A stretch of 53,188 nt of DNA. Source: an uncultured Candidatus Peribacteria bacterium (GTDB lineage: Bacteria > Patescibacteriota > Gracilibacteria > Absconditabacterales > Absconditicoccaceae). The translations under genes were made by a program, and so were the position numbers. This document shows positions 1-47,894 of this stretch, in pieces. Numbering within the stretch: the first letter of the stretch is position 1; every line of letters begins with the position of its first letter. The notes under the pieces were generated by a model that saw only the letters and a program-made list of their open reading frames with translations, was not told where the DNA came from and ran no database searches. The stretch covers positions 1-53,188 of the forward strand of contig CAYRHE010000001.1 of the NCBI GenBank assembly GCA_964424095.1. Direction: 5' to 3'.

Positions 1-51
1 TTCTGCCTTCCAAGCAGACTGTTGCGGGTTCGAGTCCCGTCATCCGCTCCA
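1..51 (+). tRNA. tRNA-Gly (anticodon UCC), 3' portion only; the window starts inside the gene
   Basis: Anticodon stem tctgc/gcaga (2-6/14-18) with loop cTTCCaa. T-arm gcggg-ttcgagt-cccgt. Acceptor 3' strand, U discriminator and encoded CCA ending at 51. Confidence 0.8.
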
Positions 52-11608: not shown

Positions 11609-11982
11609 GGGGATGTCTCTGGATTTGATAAAGGGACTTCATAATTGATGACAGCCACTACTCGATGAGCGTACCGAGTATACTAATCGTTCAACCAAAA
11701 AATGCTAACGCATCTAAATCTCTTTTAAAGAGAGCTGCTCTTGTTAGTCCTGCTTACGCAGTCTAATTTAGACAGTAACCATCCTGACTGCTGACTCCTT
11801 CTATCTTTCAGGTCGCCCTAAGAAGGAAAACATTATGTTGCTAGGACAAAATGCTCGCCTGTTTATCGGCCAAAGCTTGCCTGTACTAGTAACTTGAAAA
11901 ACCATAGGCCTATAGATAATCTATAGTGGTAGAAATTGTTGATTATGCCTTTTAGACACGGGTTCGATTCCCGTCATCTCCA
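11609..11982 (+). ncRNA. ssrA: tmRNA (SsrA)
   Basis: 5' ggggatg pairs with 3' catctcc, including the G3:U pair. T-arm gggttcgattccc. Discriminator A; CCA is not encoded. Candidate tag ORF 11704-11766: ANASKSLLKRAALVSPAYAV then TAA. Confidence 0.9.
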
Positions 11983-12006
11983 AAAATCTAATTCTGACCT
12001 AATAAG

Positions 12007-25490: not shown

Positions 25491-26558
25491 TTATCAAGAA
25501 ATATTTTGTAAAAGAGCAAAAAGTTTGGTATTGATATAATAATTATCTCTACCAGATTTTATTTTTTTTAATATTCAGATTTTTACTAATTCTTCCAAAT
25601 ATTTAACCGCTGTGATACGGGTACATCACAAATCTTTTCTTAAAAATTCTACTCTGGTATAGGGATGTTTGAATATATTATTTAATAATTCTTGACTATA
25701 TATTTTGGGTAATCTTGATCTAATAGTGTGTTTGTATTCCATCATCAGATTTTTTATGTTTTTGATAAGTATTATTGTGTGTTTAGCTGTTTGTTCTATC
25801 ATTTCCAACATCCAAATAACCCAAGCTTCCCAAGTTCACTGATCACGAACTGTTTGTAAATAATTATAATAATCGTTTTTGTGTTTATTTATGCTTCTAC
25901 TAAGATACAAAATAGGGCTATCCAAAAGTCACTCTTTAACCAAATATAAAACATTTATAACACGACCGACTCTACCATTTGCATCATAAAACGGATGAAT
26001 GCTTTCAAACTGATGGTGAATTATCGACATTTTGATCAAAGGGTCTAATTGACTTGGCGTATTAATAAACCACTCTAAATCTGACATTAAATCAACAATT
26101 TCTTTGTGAGATTGTGGGGGGGTATATATTATTTCGCCTGTTTTGTCATTTTTTAGTTCTGTTCATGGCAATTTTCTGATTCATGCATTATTTTCTTCGA
26201 TCATTTGCTGTAATTGTATAATATCTTTTGTAGTAATTAGATTGCTTTTGACAACACTTTGATATCAATAAAACAAAGCATCTGCATAATTATATACTTC
26301 TTTTGCAGGAATACTTGTAAAGTATTTTTTTTTGGTATTGCTTTGGTATAATTCATCATTGGTAGTTATAATATTTTCTATTTCAGAACTTTCTTTGGCT
26401 TCTTGTAAACTCAATGTAGTAATCAAAATAAACATGCTGGGTATTGTTTCAGCAAGACCTTTTAACTCTCACAAAGATTTGTGAGTTTGAGAAAGTTGTT
26501 TTAAAACTCAAATGGTTTCAAAATCGTATGTGTTTAATAATTGCGCAATTTTTTGCAT
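25491..26558 (-). CDS. Fic/DOC family protein with C-terminal winged-helix domain
   Basis: ATG 26558, TAA 25491-25493, 355 aa. HPFYDANGRVGR (HxFx[DE]GNGRxxR). Same frame as track ORF 25626-25811. Confidence 0.85.
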
Positions 26559-26730
26559 ATTATACAAGATATGTATAAAAAAACCTATTTTGTATATATA
26601 TTATATAGATGTGTATATATTTTGCAAGTTTTTTTATATATATTTTTCATTCAGCAAAAACCTCAAACGATTAAACAGATTAATCATAGTTTCAAATCCC
26701 TGAGATTTTTTTTTATTTGATTTAAAAAAA

Positions 26731-26774: not shown

Positions 26775-28166
26775 TTAGAAATCACAAGTTTTTGGAGCTC
26801 TTGGAAAAGGAATAACATCACGAATATTTTCCATACCTGTTATATACATCATCAATCTTTCGAATCATACTCCAAATCAAGCATGAGGAACTGTTCCATA
26901 TTTTCTGAGATCAAGATATCGTCAATAATCTTCTATATTTAGTCACATATCTTTGATTTTTTGTTCCAAAACATCAAGTCTCTCCTCTCTTTGACTTCAT
27001 CAAATAATCTCTCAAACTCCTGGTACTAAAAGATCTGTAGCAGCGACTGTTTTTTTGTCTTCATTGAGTCTCATATAAAACGCTTTGATATCTTTTGGAT
27101 AGTCAGTAACAAAAACTGGTCAATTGTAGATTCTTTCTGAAATATATCTTTCGTGTTCTGTCTGTAAATCAATACCTCGCTCTACAGGATATTCAAATTT
27201 TTGTCCAGATTTTTTGAGAATTTCTACAGCTTGTGTATAGGTAACTCTAGCAAAATCTGAATTTACTAATTTTTGTAATCTGGTTTTCACTTCTGGATTG
27301 ATAAATTGAGCAAAAAAGTCCATTTCTGCATCAGCATTATCCAATATATATTTGAAAGCGTATTTTATTAATCATTCTGCAAGATTCATATCATCATTGA
27401 GATCTGCGAAAGCAATTTCTGGTTCTATCATCCAAAATTCTGAAAGGTGCTTTGTTGTATTACTGTTTTCAGCCCTAAATGTAGGTCAAAATGTATAAAT
27501 TTTACCAAAAGCACATGCAAAAGTTTCTCAATTTAATTGTCAACTTACTGTCAGAGACGTTTCTTTTCCAAAAAAATCTTTGGAATAATCAACTTTCCCT
27601 TCAGGGGTTTTGGGAAGGTTTACCATGTCTAACGTAGAAATTCTAAACATTTCTCATGCTCATTCGCAATCACTTCCTGTAATAATTGGCGTGTGTGCTC
27701 GTATAAATCACTCTTTACGAAAATATTCGTGTATTGCAAAAGCCAATAAACTTCTAACTCTAAAAACAGCTGAAAACGTATTTGATCTTGGTCTAAGGTG
27801 TGCAATTTCACGAAGATATTCGAAGCTATGTCATTTTTTTTGTAATGGATAATCAGTTGGACAACCACCAACAAGAGTTATTTTTGTTGCCTTAATTTCA
27901 AATGTTTGTTTAGCTCATTGAGAAGCTACCAAAACTCATTCGACACTAATAGAAGAACCAGTTGTAAATTTACAAATATCATCAAAATTTGATAAATCGT
28001 TTTCAAATACTACTTGAATATTTTTTAGATAAGATCAATCATTGAGTTCTATAAATCCAAACGTTTTGGAATCTCTTACACTTCTTATCCATCAATTAAT
28101 AGCGATATTTTGATTAAGGAATGATTTATAGTCGCTAAAAATACTCATAATAGCAGTTGTCTTCAT
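26775..28166 (-). CDS. asnS: Asparaginyl-tRNA synthetase
   Basis: ATG 28166, TAA 26775-26777, 463 aa. N-terminus ...[23 protein letters not shown]. C-terminus [20 protein letters not shown]. Confidence 0.9.
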
Positions 28167-28255
28167 ATATCTAAGAGAAAAAAATAAATTACTATTATCT
28201 TATAACGTTTTACTTTTTGAATGCAATATTTTAAAAGATTTTTTGTTTACAATAC

Positions 28256-28902
28256 AAAAAAACCTTAGAAAAAATCTAAGGTTTTAATAAATCTTATCAA
28301 AAGAACAAGGACTTATGAAGATAAACAATGAAATATTACAAATTAATAAAAATATAATAAAACAAAGAAAGGTTTCAAAAGTCCAATATTGAAATAACAC
28401 TATCTTTACTATAATATGAAGATGAATAAACAAACAACATATTTTGCAAAGCAGACCTTTTTATCTTTAATCTTTTGTCTGATATTTCTTTTTTGAGAAA
28501 TATAATATTTGCAATAAAGAATAAATCTTTAAATAGTCTGAATAAACAGAAATATCAAAATATAATATACCAAACAATAAATAAAACATAAATCAATCCT
28601 AATGTAAGAAAATCCAATAAAGAATAAAACAAACATAAAGAATAAATTCAGAATTTAATTATTTGCATGATATAATGGTATAAATCAAATCTAGATAATA
28701 ATCAATTTAACTAAACCCAAAGAGAATAATTAATTTGAAATACCGATAGAAATAATAAACACCAAATTATAAACTAAATTTTAATAATAAAATCAGAATA
28801 TAAATTACATAAGATACAAAAATAGTTTAATCAATTTGTTCTATGATAAAGATCCAACATCATACAGATATCAATTTTTTACAATCAACATCTTTTGATG
28901 AC
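28256..28902 (-). ncRNA. Large candidate non-coding RNA, locus X (paralog of 44903-45526)
   Basis: Promoter TTGACA-16-TATACT upstream; terminator hairpin 28262-28282 plus U-run. Shares exact blocks of 25 nt (28831-28855) and 23 nt (28290-28312) with locus Y. Has no ORF conserved in Y. Confidence 0.5.
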
Positions 28903-28908
28903 AGTATA

Positions 28909-28936
28909 AGTATAATCGATTTTTTTTATTTGTCAA
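28909..28936 (-). promoter_or_regulatory. Consensus sigma70-type promoter of locus X
   Basis: Minus strand TTGACA (28936-28931), 16 nt, TATACT (28914-28909), followed by TATACTGTCATCAAAAGATG as in locus Y. Confidence 0.55.
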
Positions 28937-29057
28937 ATTTTTAGTGACTTTTTTTGTGGGTTGTATAAACAAGTTTAGAACTTAGTTTACTCTGTTTTAT
29001 AATTTTATTATTACAAAATCACAAATAAAATTTTATTTGTTTTACATAAAAAAAATT

Positions 29058-41990: not shown

Positions 41991-44618
41991 CTAAGAATTT
42001 GTACCGTAATCTTCAAATGAATTTTTATTGATATATTTTGCTATATCTACAACTACGATAATTGATAAAGATATAATTGCTGTAACCAACCATGTATACC
42101 AAGGCAATCCTGTTGTTTCAAATATTTTTTGCAAAAATGGAATATACATAATTGCAACAGTTGCCAATATTGAAGCAGCACCTGCATAGATCAAAAGTGT
42201 GTTTCTAAATAAACTTGTTTTGAAAAATGAAGAATAAAGAGACCTAAAATTAAAAGCATTACTAACCTCAAACATAATTAATGTAAGCAATGTTGCTGTA
42301 TGTGCAGCTACCAGAGACCAGTTCAAAACATTTAAAGTAATATAATATACAACCAATGCTCATGCGGCCATAAACAATCAGACACCAACCATTAATATCT
42401 TTTTCTTGGTATTGAGAATTTCAGAATTTCTTCTTGCTTTGAGTTTCATAATATATCATGAACCCGCTGTAAATCAAAGCGTAAGTGCTGGCATATTATC
42501 TGTCACCAAGTTCATAAACAAGATTTGAATTGCTACCAAAGGAACCGGCCATCACATCAATACAGCAAAGAATATTGTTGCCAATTCTGCAATATTACAA
42601 GATATTTGGTAAATTACAAATTTTTGAATGTTTTTGAAAATGGTTCTTCACTCCTCTATTGCCGTCACAATAGTTACAAAATTATCGTCTTCGAGAATAA
42701 GATCTGCTGCTTCACGAGAGACATCTGTTCCATTTATTCCCATAGCCACTCAGATATGGGCTTCTTTGAGGGCTGGGGCATCATTTACGCCATCACCCGT
42801 CATTGTTACAATCTCACCCAGCCCTTTAAGGGCTTTTACGATTCTGAGCTTGTGCTCAGGTTTTACCCTAGCAAATATCATTATATCTAGAACCCTTGAT
42901 GTAAGTTCTTTATCTGTCATTTTATCTAAATCATCTCATGTTACAGCATCTCAAACAATTCATACATCTCTTGCTATAGCAATTGCTGTTTCTTTGTTGT
43001 CTCAGGTAATCATTTTTACTTTTATTCATGCATCATAACATTTCTCTATTGCTTCTTTTACACCATCTCTAGGACTATCTTGTAAACCAACAGCACCCAA
43101 AAATACAATATTTTCTTCCAACATCCCAGCTTGATTTTTTTCTATATACTTATATCATAAACAAAGAACTCTATATTTTTTTTCCGTAAGATCTGATATT
43201 TTTTCTTGTATATGATGAATCTCTTTTACTCATAACTCTACAATCTGATTTCATTTTTGTACATGAGTACAATGTTTCAAGAAAAATTCTGGTGCTCATT
43301 TACTATATAATACATTTTTTCATTTTTTTTCTACAACAACACTCATCATTTTCCTTTCAGAATTGAATGGAACTTCTTCAAGCCTTTCAAAATGTACAAT
43401 ATCTTCTACTATATTTGCTTTATGACCCAACACCATCAATGCAATTTCCGTAGGAGTTCATTTAAACTTTCTTCCTTCTTTATGATTGATAATATGAGCA
43501 TTATTACATAAAACGGCTGATTCTAATAATTGATAAAGATGCTTATCATTTCTTGGATCTATTGATTTTTTATCTTCCAAAAATTTTCATTGCATATCAT
43601 AACCAACTCAACTTATCTCAACAACACGATCATAAGTAATCAACTCTTTTGCTGTCATCTCTCATTTTGTAATAGTCCCTGTTTTGTCACTACAAATTAC
43701 AGTTGTTTCTCAAAGAGTTTCTATAATAGACATTCTATTTACAATAGCTTTTTTCTTTGCCATTTTGTATGCTCCTCATGCAAGTGTTGAAATCAATACA
43801 ACAGGAAGTCATTCTGGAAATGCAGAAATCATAAGTGCAATACTTATCAAAACAATTTCTATAATATGTTGAGCTGTCCATGCTTCAAGATTATATAACA
43901 TAATAGCAGCTGAAGCCAAAGAAATCACAATTGCAATTGTTGCCATAAATTTCACCAACTTATTTACTTTATGTTTTAGGGGTAAATCTTTTTCCGCAGC
44001 AGAAATCATTCCTGCAATTTTACCAAATTCTGTATGCATTCATGTTTTCAAAACTTTTGCTACAGCACGACCATTTACAATATATGTTCACATAAAAACA
44101 AGATTTTCTGAATCATAAATTTCTTTAACATGTTTTGTTGCTATTTTGGAAACCTCTTTAGATTCTCATGTAAGAATAGATTCATTGACCATCAAATCCT
44201 TTGCTTCTACAATAACGCAATCAGTAGGAATTTTCTCTCCTGTTTCCAAAAGAACAACATCTCCTGGAACCAATTCTTTTGAACTTACTTGGATTTCTTT
44301 ACCATCCCTAACAACTGTAGAAAAAGATTCTAACATATTTTTCAACGCGTCAACTGCTTTTTCAGCCTTATATTCTTGAAAAAATCAAACAACCACTATA
44401 ACCAAAATCACTCCAATTATCGAATATCCCGTTGTTCATTTTCAAACTGCAAAAGAAAGCAATGCTGCTGCTACCATAAAATAAGCCATAAAATTTCATT
44501 TTACTTGGTCTCGTAAAATTGATCGTAAGCTTCTTTTTTTACTTTCTTTGATTATATTATAACCATAGGTTTCTAATTTTTTTTTGGCTTCGTGATTAGT
44601 AAGTCCAGTGTACTTCAT
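41991..44618 (-). CDS. P-type (type II, Ca2+-transporting-like) cation ATPase
   Basis: ATG 44618, TAG 41991-41993, 875 aa. Tg[11 protein letters not shown], MITg[14 protein letters not shown]. Confidence 0.9.
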
Positions 44619-44644
44619 ATAAATATATTATTAATAATTAAAAC

Positions 44645-44677
44645 AGTATAAGTATAATCAGAATTTGTTTTCGTCAA
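44645..44677 (-). promoter_or_regulatory. Candidate promoter of the P-type ATPase gene
   Basis: Minus strand TTGACG-15-TATACTTATACTGT, sharing the -10 module of the two large ncRNA loci. Confidence 0.4.
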
Positions 44678-44867
44678 AATATATCAAACAAAATCATTAC
44701 GATTTCCCCATATTTTGATAAAAAATATATGTAATTAGTGATTTTTAATAAAAAAATGATTAAAAATTAAAATAAAATTAATTTCTCAAAAAAATTATAA
44801 ATACAAGGCTAATAAAACCAGCTTCAAAAGCTACATATCAAAAAGATAAAAAAAAGTCATCAAAAAT

Positions 44868-44896
44868 TTGACAAATAAAACATTTTCGTGTATACT
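44868..44896 (+). promoter_or_regulatory. Consensus sigma70-type promoter of locus Y
   Basis: TTGACA (44868-44873), 17 nt, TATACT (44891-44896). Confidence 0.6.
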
Positions 44897-44902
44897 TATA
44901 TT

Positions 44903-45526
44903 GTCATCAAAAGATGAAGGGTGTTAAAACCTTATTGTCTGATGGTGTAGGATCTTTATCATAGAACAAATTGACCTCTGTACTGTTTTTGTGTCATTTG
45001 TATATTAATATATTTCTTTTTTGTGCTAGCTAGCTGGTTTGAAAAGGACTTATATTCTTTGATTTCTATTCTCTCCTTTTGGTTTGATTGTGTTGATCTT
45101 TAGATTTACCTTTGGTTTGTCTTTGGATTAATATATTCTGATCTTTTGGTTTGTTTGGATTATCATTTATACTTTTTGATACTTTGTATGTTTAAACTAG
45201 TTTTGGATATACAAGCTGTTTAGGACTTCTGTCCTCTTACAAATACTGTATTTCTTTGCAAAAAGAGATATCAGGCACAAAATTAAAGATTAAACCGCCT
45301 GCTTTGTAAAATATATTGTTGGATAAAACCTGCTTTATATTATAGTAAAAATAGCACTCGATCAATATAGGACTTGTGCATTCTTTGTTTTGTTTTATTG
45401 TGCTTGATTTAACTTACCTTTGGTATTTTATATCTTGTATAGTATTACATTGGTTTATCATCACCTGTCCTTGTTCTTTTGATAAGATTCAAAAGGACCT
45501 TGGAAGATTCTTCTAAGGTTTTTTTC
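44903..45526 (+). ncRNA. Large candidate non-coding RNA, locus Y
   Basis: About 620 nt between a consensus promoter and a 10-bp-stem terminator. No ORF longer than 16 codons on either strand, even with TGA=Gly. U/G-rich with multiple hairpins. Paralogous to locus X. Confidence 0.55.
45497..45526. terminator. Strong intrinsic terminator shared by locus Y (+) and engB (-)
   Basis: accttggaag-att-cttctaaggt (one G:U pair) followed by TTTTTTT on the plus strand. Confidence 0.7.
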
Positions 45527-46117
45527 TTATTGTAAAATTTTTTCTATTTTATCCAAAAGATTATCTTTCCCCCTACCTTTGATACTAGATGTCATAATAA
45601 AATTTGGTTTATTTCAAAAATATTTTTCGTACATATTTTGCAGCGCTATTGTGTTTTTATATAAATCTTTCTGATTACTTTTATCTGTTTTTGTTATAAT
45701 AATTTCAAAAGGAATTTGATCTTCTTTTAGTACTTTCATAAATTCAAAATCAATTGTTTGTGGCTGTATAGATCAATCAACAAGAACAAAAACGACTTTT
45801 AATGAGGGTCTTTGTGTAAGAAATTCTTGCATGGTATCCATCCAATCTATTCTTTGCTTTTTACTATATTTTGCATATCAATATCCGGGAAGATCAACCA
45901 AGTATCGACTTTTATTTATCAAAAAATAATTCAGCAATTGGGTTTTACCAGGAGTTACAGAAGATTTTGCAAGCTGTTTGCGTTGGGTAAGCATATTTAT
46001 CAATGAAGACTTTCATACGTTGGACCTCCCTACCAACGCAAATTCTGGATATTCTGCTGGAGGACATTCTGATAATTTGGAAGCACTTTTAATAAACTGG
46101 GCTGAGGTTATAATCAT
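45527..46117 (-). CDS. engB: Ribosome-biogenesis GTPase EngB (YsxC/YihA)
   Basis: ATG 46117, TAA 45527-45529, 196 aa. GRSNVgKSSLIN, DLPGYgYA, TKTD. Confidence 0.85.
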
Positions 46118-46379: not shown

Positions 46380-47669
46380 CTAATTGTTTATAATTGGAAT
46401 CTCAAAAGAAAATGTAGAACCTTTTCCAAGCTCACTTTGTATTGGCAACATTTTACCTCAAAAAACATTAATAATTTTTAAAACAATAGCCAATCAAAGT
46501 CAAGATCACCTAATGATCGGCTGGCAATCAGATTCTAAAGATTGAAATTCTTGGAAAATTTTTTCATAATTTTCTTTATCTATTCATGATCACGTATCAG
46601 AAACAGAAAAAACAAAACATCCATTATTTTGCTCTGCAGAAATAGAAATGGTTCATGTATCCGTAAACTTTATAGCATTCGATATAAGATTTGTAAAAAT
46701 TCTTTCCAATAATTTTTCATCACTTTCAAATATTTTGGGGAAAGATATTAAATCATTATTCAAAACAAAATTTATATCTTTTTCTTTCTTTCATTCTTTT
46801 TTTGATAATTCATTAATATGGGTTAAATACCCATGTTGTTGATTTAGTATTTTATCAAAAAAATCTTTTGTAGCTATTTTATTTATTTTAGATTTTGTAA
46901 CTCATTTTTTCAAAGCTCAAAATTCATTAAGATCTTCTACAAATGCATATACTCTATCTGATGACTGTTTAACAATATCAAGGAAAAAAATAATTTTTTC
47001 AAAATCATCTTTAGTAAAATTCTTTGATTCATACACATCTGTAATATATTGTTTCATAATTTCTCAAAATCAATTTATAGCATTGACTGGATTCTTTATG
47101 TCATGAATAACATAACTCATAAACTGATTTAATTGATCATTTACATTTTGCAATTGTATATTTGCATTTTCCAATTCTCTTTTTGCCATTTCAAGCTGTT
47201 TGTTTTTTTCGTTTAGTTCATCATTTATAGCTAATAATTCTTCATTTGTAGTTTTGATTTCTTCATTGGCTTTTTCTACTTCTTCTTTGGCTAAAAACAA
47301 TTCAGTTATATCTTTACCAATTCATGCAATAGCGGGATTTCACATCCAAGTAATAGGCTCTCTTGTTACAGAAAAAATGCGCTCTTCTCAGTTCGCTACT
47401 TTTTCTTTCTGTATTGAAATAACATCTCATTTTTGTGTTTCTCGAATATTTTTATAATCCATGAGGATTTTCTTTATATGTTCTTGTGATCTATGAGGAA
47501 AAATTTCATTCAGATCTTTTCAGACTGGATCAAATCCCAATATACTTGCCAAGTGACTGTTTGTATAAGCACAAATTCATTCTAAATCATAAACAAATAC
47601 ATTATCTTGTGTTTTTTTTAATATTTGAGACATTCATTCTACACATATATCATCTTTATTATATTTCAT
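46380..47669 (-). CDS. PAS-domain sensor histidine kinase (no adjacent response regulator)
   Basis: ATG 47669, TAG 46380-46382, 429 aa. H-box SYVIHDIKNP, N-box NLISNAIKFT, DTgSgI, gSgLgL. Coiled-coil linker. Confidence 0.85.
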
Positions 47670-47749
47670 AATTTCAATATCATATATAAATATCAAGATG
47701 TGTTTTAATTATATATTTTCAAAAGTCAATATCGTTTTTAAAAAAATAA

Positions 47750-47851: not shown

Positions 47852-47879
47852 ATTATAATCAGATTTTTTATTTTGTCAA
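47852..47879 (-). promoter_or_regulatory. Consensus promoter (TTGACA-16-TATAAT)
   Basis: Minus strand TTGACA 47879-47874, TATAAT 47857-47852. A 14-bp perfect palindrome (47832-47845) lies just downstream. Confidence 0.55.
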
Positions 47880-47894
47880 ATTTTTGAAAAACAA

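Follow-up and report, generated by a model that had tools for sequence, protein, structure and literature searches.

A probable new family of large stand-alone structured noncoding RNAs in a sub-clade of Absconditabacteria

We analysed a 53,188-nt stretch of DNA from an uncultured Candidatus Peribacteria bacterium (contig CAYRHE010000001.1 of assembly GCA_964424095.1, positions 1 to 53,188; hereafter the window) and found that the gap of about 900 bp between a P-type cation ATPase gene and engB likely encodes a member of a new family of stand-alone structured noncoding RNAs (ncRNAs) from a sub-clade of Absconditabacteria. The RNA copy in this gap (W1) is read from the plus strand, and a paralogue (W2) is located near asnS on the minus strand. 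As would be expected of stand-alone ncRNA genes, the element has a promoter and a terminator that are conserved in position, a structure that shows compensatory base changes, and neither a conserved reading frame nor protein homology. A first-pass annotation had described W1 as an orphan, stand-alone non-coding unit of about 620 nt, in the size range of large ornate RNAs. Its observations were partly confirmed, and its interpretation is supported by the boundaries, the architecture shared between copies, the covariation, the strand-specific fold and the negative Rfam and protein searches reported below. The RNA is no orphan: nhmmer recovered the W2 paralogue, orthologues occur in related SR1 bacteria, and these make up a small family with two copies in the window.

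Genome context of the two copies

The window has a G+C content of 28.6%, and its genes are fragmented under translation table 11 and intact only if TGA is a sense codon (ORF analysis; ORF, open reading frame), a pattern that fits the UGA=Gly code of SR1/Gracilibacteria. Homologues of its EngB and AsnRS proteins are labelled Absconditabacteria or candidate division SR1 by their source records. The gap between the ATPase gene and engB is real and holds W1, but the earlier statement that it contains no ORF longer than 16 codons was incorrect: stop-free frames with TGA as sense codon reach up to 83 codons, and ORFs of 46 (GTG), 42 and 38 (TTG) codons are present, none of them conserved between lineages. 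The G+C content rises from 16–18% in the true spacer (44600–44850) to 27–31% across the W1 unit (200-nt windows), and the plus strand of W1 is U/G-rich, as had been noticed before (U 44.7%, G 16.5%, C 13.1%). W1 converges on engB and is not followed by a gene in its own orientation.

The family profile matched window positions 28253–28959 on the minus strand (nhmmer, E = 3e-58), which places W2 about 16 kb from W1. W2 is approximately 69% identical to W1 and has the same A-tract/GTCA-N9-TGAC/−35 block, the core blocks and the first nucleotides GUCAUCAAAAGAUG. It lies between a permease-like gene and asnS, all on one strand, and ends 90 nt upstream of asnS. An ORF that overlaps W2 (110 codons from ATG, 125 codons from stop to stop, 28336–28710) is almost certainly spurious.

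Orthologues and distribution

The EngB protein of the window organism was found on 24 contigs from at least eight samples, and the gap is 100% identical across the eight loci retrieved. In five further SR1 genomes or contigs, orthologues of the element adjoin engB or asnS. In GCA_028693445.1 (loci L089 and L148), whose EngB is 79% identical, a block corresponding to positions ~44819–45525 is 92–93% identical to the window, with identity climbing at the promoter and collapsing directly past the U-tract. The W1 element itself is 93.4% identical to this orthologue, compared with 80.3% for the adjacent engB and 64.8% for its third codon positions. Further orthologues on the engB side are L091/L092 (89.5% identical), L154 of GCA_964586005.1 (80.2%) and L094 (59% overall, with well conserved 5' 165 nt and 3' 70 nt). 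A close copy on a metagenome contig, L147, was the sole locus returned by a metagenome contig search with an invariant 22-mer.

The orthologue of W2 in GCA_028693445.1 (L148) is 99.7% identical. The tract around W2 and L148 is 94–100% identical, as is the flanking 5 kb, while the middle of asnS (26836–27835) reaches 72–82%. Because this tract belongs to a mosaic genome pair, the 99.7% identity says nothing about constraint, and a reading of extreme constraint was dropped. The pattern suggests recombination or allelic replacement inside asnS between the two genomes.

The linkage of engB and the element is retained in six loci. The other neighbour varies between the ATPase gene, a Na/Ca exchanger gene and three inserted small genes, and thus the unit is linked to the 3' end of engB rather than to the ATPase gene. 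No copy was found at the syntenic engB site in L090 and L093, where engB is directly followed by the Na/Ca exchanger gene, and in L155, nor at the syntenic asnS site in L149–L153, which are more distant SR1 genomes searched at that site only. The element is therefore dispensable, relocated or clade-restricted. A covariance model (CM) of the central domain scored every known copy at 105–128 bits and had no other match across 255 kb of SR1 sequence. Phage and plasmid collections yielded no match to the element; 52 viral-contig loci that matched a conserved 20-mer and 17-mer were chance matches as judged by nhmmer.

Promoter, terminator and predicted transcript

The promoter TTGACA-17-TATACT proposed earlier at 44868–44896 was reproduced as the sole match to 11 of 12 consensus positions in the region (−35 at 44868–44873, −10 at 44891–44896). 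Promoter-like sites as such are not above chance in the region (7 versus 9.0 ± 3.3 expected); the W1 promoter is credible because its position is held in every homologue, not because of the scan. The block AAAAAAGTCAnnAAAAATTTGACAAA and a −10 hexamer have a fixed position in all homologues as well as in W2, and in L091 both hexamers are retained in spite of a diverged spacer sequence. Transcription of W1 would start at G44903, 7 nt past the −10 hexamer, and the first nucleotides of the predicted transcript again carry the motif GTCAUCAAAA. The palindrome GTCA-N9-TGAC overlaps the −35 hexamer of both W1 (44856–44872) and W2 (28948–28932), is kept in orthologues, and resembles an operator bound by a dimeric regulator. 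The −35 context AAAAATTTGACAAA recurs a third time, with one mismatch, at 47871–47885 on the minus strand upstream of a histidine-kinase-like gene (46380–47708). The combination of A-tract and TTGACA may be a general form of strong promoter in this organism.

An intrinsic terminator with seven T had also been proposed and is confirmed at 45491–45525, with 16 pairs and the T-tract at 45519–45525. It is the only terminator-like site in the region (0.3 expected), and its hairpin is preserved in homologues through G-U/A-U swaps and one double-sided change. With its end 1 nt away from the stop codon of engB, it probably also terminates the convergent engB transcript.

Consensus fold, covariation and strand

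A consensus fold was computed with RNAalifold from eight sequences representing about five independent lineages (W1/L147/L089, L091, L154, L094 and W2/L148). It comprises 106 pairs in 15 helices, and 96.5% of the 822 aligned pair cells form standard pairs. Double-sided changes were observed at 17 pairs, compared with 2–6 in controls in which the 3' partners were slid by 1–3 columns, and the observed covariation was reached by none of 500 shuffles. For the five W1-type sequences, in which both variable arms remain paired too, the fold has 190 pairs (95.8% paired) with 16 double-sided changes versus 1–6 in controls, and the consensus places approximately 61% of nucleotides in pairs. Folded singly and independently, W1 and W2 gave one architecture, with minimum free energies (MFE) of −173.9 kcal/mol (z = −10.9) and −144.6 kcal/mol (z = −9.1), respectively; W2 scores 107 bits with the CM. 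The complementary strand of W1 folds with −96 kcal/mol (z = −2.7), and reading the same pairs in antisense lowers the paired fraction from 96.5 to 85.8% for the eight sequences and from 95.8 to 80.9% for the W1-type set. Several G-U pairs are invariant across sequences. Based on these invariant G-U pairs, the folding energy and the orientation of promoter and terminator, the RNA strand is plus for W1 and minus for W2. Pairing potential, conservation and covariation of the modelled fold are shown computationally.

The strongest covariation of the molecule is in the central domain. Hairpin AGGAC/GUCCU (45222–45235) is replaced by GGGAU/GUCCC, AGAGA/UCUCU and AAAGA/UCUUU in other lineages (five of five pairs with double-sided changes), and CAGGC/GCCUG (45272–45301), which carries a conserved 20-nt A-rich loop (45277–45296), by CAGAU/AUCUG and CAGAC/GUCUG (two of five). 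Both had been noticed in the first-pass annotation, as had hairpin UAUUUCUUU/AAAGAGAUA (45248–45271); all three exist and are kept in homologues. The central stem UUACAAA/UUUGUAA (45237–45243 with 45303–45309) has double-sided changes in two of seven pairs. In the 5' hairpin domain, a short ucauc-aaaa-gauga hairpin (~44904–44917) can form as suggested, but comparative data favour the longer hairpin 44905–44921/44930–44947, whose inner stem AGGG/CCUU (44918–44921 with 44930–44933) is of UUGA/UUGA type in W2, with three of four pairs changed on both sides.

The closing helix, which joins the 5' and 3' parts of the molecule, has 18 pairs, 16 of which, including one G-U, are invariant in all eight sequences, and was also recovered in the single-sequence folds of W1 and W2. 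The two inner long-range helices are mostly invariant with one double-sided change, were likewise recovered in both single-sequence folds, and are plausible in the model. Variable arm 1 is not alignable across the W1, W2 and L094 types, and is paired with some compensatory changes within the W1 type. It contains the palindrome gctagctagc, which is located at 45025–45034 and not at 45037–45046, and, of three repeats reported initially, a 41-nt duplication (45067–45107/45134–45174, 71% identical) plus only a shorter third copy. Variable arm 2, with an ACC-UUU-GGU tip at 45415–45425, is shortened in W2 and nearly absent in L094. Candidate pseudoknots (loop GAU(U)AAAC with GGUUUAUC; 45242–45246 with 45442–45446) were not trusted, since the A/U- and G-U-rich alignment gives too many spurious stacks.

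Table 1. Coordinates of the RNA elements, their predicted parts and other features in the window
Feature	Position	Strand	Remarks
tRNA, 3' part	1–48	+	truncated by window edge
tmRNA gene	11609–11985	+	80.9 bits; tag peptide ends ...LVSPAYAV
W2 unit	28256–28936	−	−35 28936–28931; −10 TATACT 28914–28909
W2 RNA, predicted	~28902 to 28256	−	647 nt
W2 terminator	28285–28259	−	U-tract to 28256
P-type cation ATPase gene	41991–44618	−	Pfam; open frame ends 44627, first Met 44618
W1 promoter	44850–44896	+	A-tract 44850–44855; palindrome GTCA-N9-TGAC 44856–44872; −35; 17-nt spacer; −10
W1 RNA, predicted	44903–45526	+	~624 nt; 3' end within U-tract 45519–45525
5' hairpin domain	44905–44921 with 44930–44947	+	same hairpin in independent W1 and W2 MFE folds
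Closing helix, 5' strand	44950–44969	+	GGAUCUUUAUCAUAGAACAA; RNA nt ~48–67; pairs with 45471–45490
Long-range helix AUUGA/UCAAU	44970–44974 with 45362–45366	+	
Long-range helix, 5' strand	44983–44991	+	CUGUUUUUG; pairs with 45346–45354
Variable U/G-rich arm 1	44992–45200	+	palindromic hairpin 45008–45055; 41-nt duplication; ACC-UUU-GGU tip 45108–45116
Central domain	45202–45309	+	hairpin 45202–45215; AGGAC/GUCCU 45222–45235; hairpin 45248–45271; CAGGC/GCCUG 45272–45301
Long-range helices, 3' strands	45346–45366	+	U45346; AAAAAUAG 45347–45354; UCAAU 45362–45366
3' domain	45369–45470	+	stem GGACUUGUG/CACCUGUCC (45370–45378 with 45462–45470) around variable arm 2
Closing helix, 3' strand	45471–45490	+	UUGUUCUUUUGAUAAGAUUC; longest block invariant in all lineages
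W1 intrinsic terminator	45491–45525	+	16-pair hairpin, then U7 (T at 45519–45525)
engB	45527–46117	−	stop codon 45527–45529

Genes around the two copies

Between the RNA gene and the ATPase gene, GCA_028693445.1 has an insertion of three genes (encoding 79 aa, a CBS-domain protein and 207 aa; L089:7579–8988 versus window 44628–44753). The 124 nt proximal to the ATPase gene are 89.5% identical in this genome despite the insertion, and this conserved stretch near the ATPase start is presumably the ATPase promoter or leader. Downstream of asnS, the window has a Fic-domain gene (25491–26600). In the corresponding region of GCA_028693445.1 (L148:11606–17243), a Fic-domain gene is followed by an island with AbiEii, reverse transcriptase and Mrr-like nuclease genes, which looks like a defence island.

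Alternative explanations

A cis-acting role, in which W2 would be an asnS leader or attenuator with regulated read-through and W1 a regulated antisense transcript into engB or an engB terminator, appears improbable. W2 is encoded on the same strand as asnS and ends shortly upstream of it, the W1 terminator nearly touches the engB stop codon at a locus whose linkage is kept six times, and a weak alternative hairpin (45473–45482 with 45489–45498) would compete with the terminator. However, no gene follows W1 in its orientation, so that the same core occurs in two unrelated contexts, and the anti-terminator-like pairing of W1, as read from the sequences, is not retained in W2. Neither the T-box model of Rfam nor any other leader model gave a match, other SR1 genomes have asnS without such a leader, and approximately 650 nt with a closed 5'–3' helix far exceed known attenuators. 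It is also hardly probable that the RNA is a protein sponge of the CsrB/RsmZ type that titrates an RNA-binding protein by repeated GGA or UUGG motifs. The presence of two paralogues, as with CsrB/CsrC, a modest over-representation of UUUGG in W1 (7 versus 2.4 expected) and the repeated CC-UUU-GG hairpin tips would agree with this function, but the many GGA motifs reported initially amount to a weak excess in W1 (10 versus 6.2 ± 1.8), all in predicted stems and not in loops, and to none in W2 (4 versus 4.1). Moreover, the repeat-bearing arms are the least conserved parts, the conserved part is a unique, non-repetitive core, and no csrA gene was seen within the 53 kb window. The GGA motifs and several of the small hairpins listed earlier are not the informative features of this RNA.

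Small proteins are a very improbable product, whether from a 16-codon ORF inside the 5' domain (AUG 44914 to UAG 44962–44964; peptide MKGVKTLLSDGVGSLS) or as hydrophobic peptides from the U-rich strand. This ORF has equal length in W1, L089, L147, L094, W2 and L148, its three differences between W1 and L089 are all synonymous third-position changes as read from the alignments, and the 46-codon GTG ORF (45376–45516) is retained among W1-type sequences. However, L154 has AUA in place of the AUG of the 16-codon ORF, indels disrupt its frame in L091, a Shine-Dalgarno sequence is missing, and the start codon is buried in the stem of the 5' hairpin. The N-termini of the peptides differ between W1 and W2, and their common C-terminus falls on the invariant strand of the closing helix. 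As for the 46-codon ORF, it extends through the terminator and has a frameshift in L154. In general, ORFs vary in frame, start and length between lineages and are broken by indels; a 16-residue peptide would not account for 600 nt of conservation. No frame had a Pfam match, and a concatenated six-frame translation retrieved nothing at E ≤ 1e-3 among 5.8 billion proteins. This lack of protein homology in any frame also rules out a decayed pseudogene, which the first-pass annotation had named as a finding that would overturn its proposal. Other explanations outside RNA, i.e. neutral spacer or a DNA element such as a replication origin or an iteron/operator array, are likewise effectively refuted. 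The gap is long and adjoins an AT-rich stretch (44628–44850, 16–18% G+C), and the L094 copy happens to contain TTATCCACA, but DnaA boxes with at most one mismatch are absent inside the element and not enriched in the window (24 versus 20 ± 4.7). The absence of a DnaA-box cluster and of a GC-skew turn rules out an oriC; there is also no switch in gene orientation, and the two copies lie on opposite strands. Moreover, compensatory changes and G-U pairing that differs between the strands are to be expected of RNA and not of DNA. It is extremely improbable that the RNA belongs to a known family (RNase P, 6S, ROOL, GOLLD, OLE, raiA or HEARO) but has diverged so far that CMs miss it in a genome with 29% G+C. 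The size would fit OLE and ROOL, and AT-rich, fast-evolving sequences of the Candidate Phyla Radiation (CPR) can evade models. Yet a permissive cmscan of W1, W2 and the L094 copy against Rfam 15 (E ≤ 10, relaxed filters) gave only terminator-driven noise and none of these families, and a scan of the whole window at gathering thresholds was also without a family match to the element. The tmRNA in the window was found at 80.9 bits, which shows that CMs do work in this genome. A known family is also at odds with the two paralogues per genome, with surroundings that hold neither a tRNA island nor a prophage, and with the lack of an oapA-like neighbour.

Several points weigh against a new family of stand-alone ncRNAs, or against a particular function for it. 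The transcription start and the transcript ends of W1 are predictions from sequence. The comparison rests on about five independent lineages only; the pairing percentages are optimistic, as the structure was derived from the same sequences on which it was tested; and the longest helices are invariant, so that without variation there is no covariation for or against the closing helix. Fairly close relatives have no copy at the syntenic site (L090, L093 and L155; L150–L153 for asnS). No partner protein or target was identified, so that a scaffold role is tentative. A role in cis is conceivable for W2, which shares its strand with asnS and lies 90 nt ahead of it.

Putative mode of action and significance

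We propose that W1 is transcribed from its conserved sigma-70-type promoter with upstream A-tract, starting at G44903, and that nt ~48–67 of the RNA would then pair with the 20 nt directly preceding the terminator and thereby clamp the molecule shut. Inside this clamp, two further long-range helices would set off a conserved central four-helix domain and the 3' domain, from which the two U/G-rich arms, fast-evolving and different between the paralogues, extend. Transcription would stop at the intrinsic terminator that abuts the engB stop codon, and the product would act as RNA in trans. By analogy, the invariant core (clamp, A-rich loop 45277–45296 and junction strands) could offer a platform on which a protein partner binds or other copies of the RNA assemble, and the variable arms could be tolerated expansions, comparable to the poorly conserved internal regions of ROOL (PMC12286853). 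Such a scaffold or assembly role is a tentative suggestion.

A more far-reaching reading, rather doubtful at present, is that the family constitutes a new class of large ornate RNA in a clade of Absconditabacteria (SR1, UGA=Gly), whose genomes of ~1 Mb would carry two strongly promoted copies of 620–700 nt. The invariant core, clamped at its ends, would form a defined three-dimensional particle, either an RNA-only oligomer or a ribonucleoprotein, with a lineage-specific function, and the paralogues would be distinct subunits or condition-specific isoforms. If true, this would be a new non-rRNA bacterial RNA of more than 500 nt and the first from the CPR.

Only a handful of bacterial ncRNAs exceed approximately 500 nt (OLE, GOLLD, ROOL and few others), each of them structurally remarkable, and members of the CPR have reduced genomes and are mostly uncultured. 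To our knowledge, no large ncRNA of this kind has been described from the CPR. It is very unlikely that two copies of 0.6–0.7 kb, each with a near-consensus promoter that is conserved and an invariant clamp of 18 bp, are junk in an SR1 genome. If confirmed, the family would be a new compact target for structural work and a marker for the clade, within the limits of its narrow known distribution of about five lineages, and would account for 'empty' stretches between genes and for some spurious calls of hypothetical proteins in these genomes.

Comparison with known RNA systems

The RNA resembles OLE RNA (RF01071) in being chromosomal, stand-alone, structured and about 600 nt long, with much of its sequence highly conserved and a restriction to one bacterial lineage. 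OLE RNA acts as a platform for protein partners (PMC12286853). In contrast to OLE, W1, W2 and the L094 copy have no match to its CM and no adjacent oapA-like membrane-protein gene; their neighbours are engB and the P-type ATPase gene, asnS and the permease-like gene, and, at orthologous loci, genes for a Na/Ca exchanger, a CBS protein and others. They also differ in that they derive from CPR/Absconditabacteria and not from Firmicutes, occur as two paralogues per genome, and are extremely U-rich (45–50% U). ROOL (RF03087) and GOLLD (RF01998) are likewise large (~580 to >800 nt) and ornate, are built of many helices and are not known to have a protein partner. Part of their interior is poorly conserved or disordered, which recalls the variable arms of the present RNA, and they are encoded in phages and prophages, often near tRNA islands (PMC12286853). 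The element described here, however, is chromosomal and located by housekeeping genes, has no match to their CMs or to phage and plasmid sequences, and is not near a tRNA gene (ARAGORN detected only the tmRNA in the 53-kb window).

As with 6S-1/6S-2, CsrB/CsrC and RsmY/RsmZ, W1 and W2 are a pair of diverged copies, each with its own strong promoter and intrinsic terminator, and a 5'–3' closing helix is common to this RNA and 6S RNA. Compared with 6S RNA, it is three times longer, lacks the central bubble architecture and has no match to RF00013, and the GGA-in-loop repeats that define Csr/Rsm sponges are absent. W2 shares with T-box leaders (RF00230) the position upstream of an aminoacyl-tRNA synthetase gene, the strand and the terminal terminator, but it has neither a match to RF00230 nor a T-box sequence, is 650 nt long instead of ~200–300 nt, and has a counterpart in W1 without a downstream gene; asnS of other SR1 genomes is without the element. 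As the first-pass annotation had anticipated from missing hallmarks of RNase P, signal recognition particle (SRP) RNA, 6S and T-box, none of these matched, and its proposed search of Rfam likewise gave no CM match to RNase P (RF00010/RF00011), 6S (RF00013), SRP, raiA or HEARO, nor to OLE, ROOL or GOLLD. Searches of the full-text literature turned up no report of such an RNA for Absconditabacteria, Gracilibacteria, Patescibacteria or CPR. Since OLE, ROOL, GOLLD, RNase P, 6S, T-box and Csr/Rsm each failed to accommodate W1 and W2, we call the two copies and their orthologues a new family within the descriptive class of large stand-alone structured bacterial ncRNAs.

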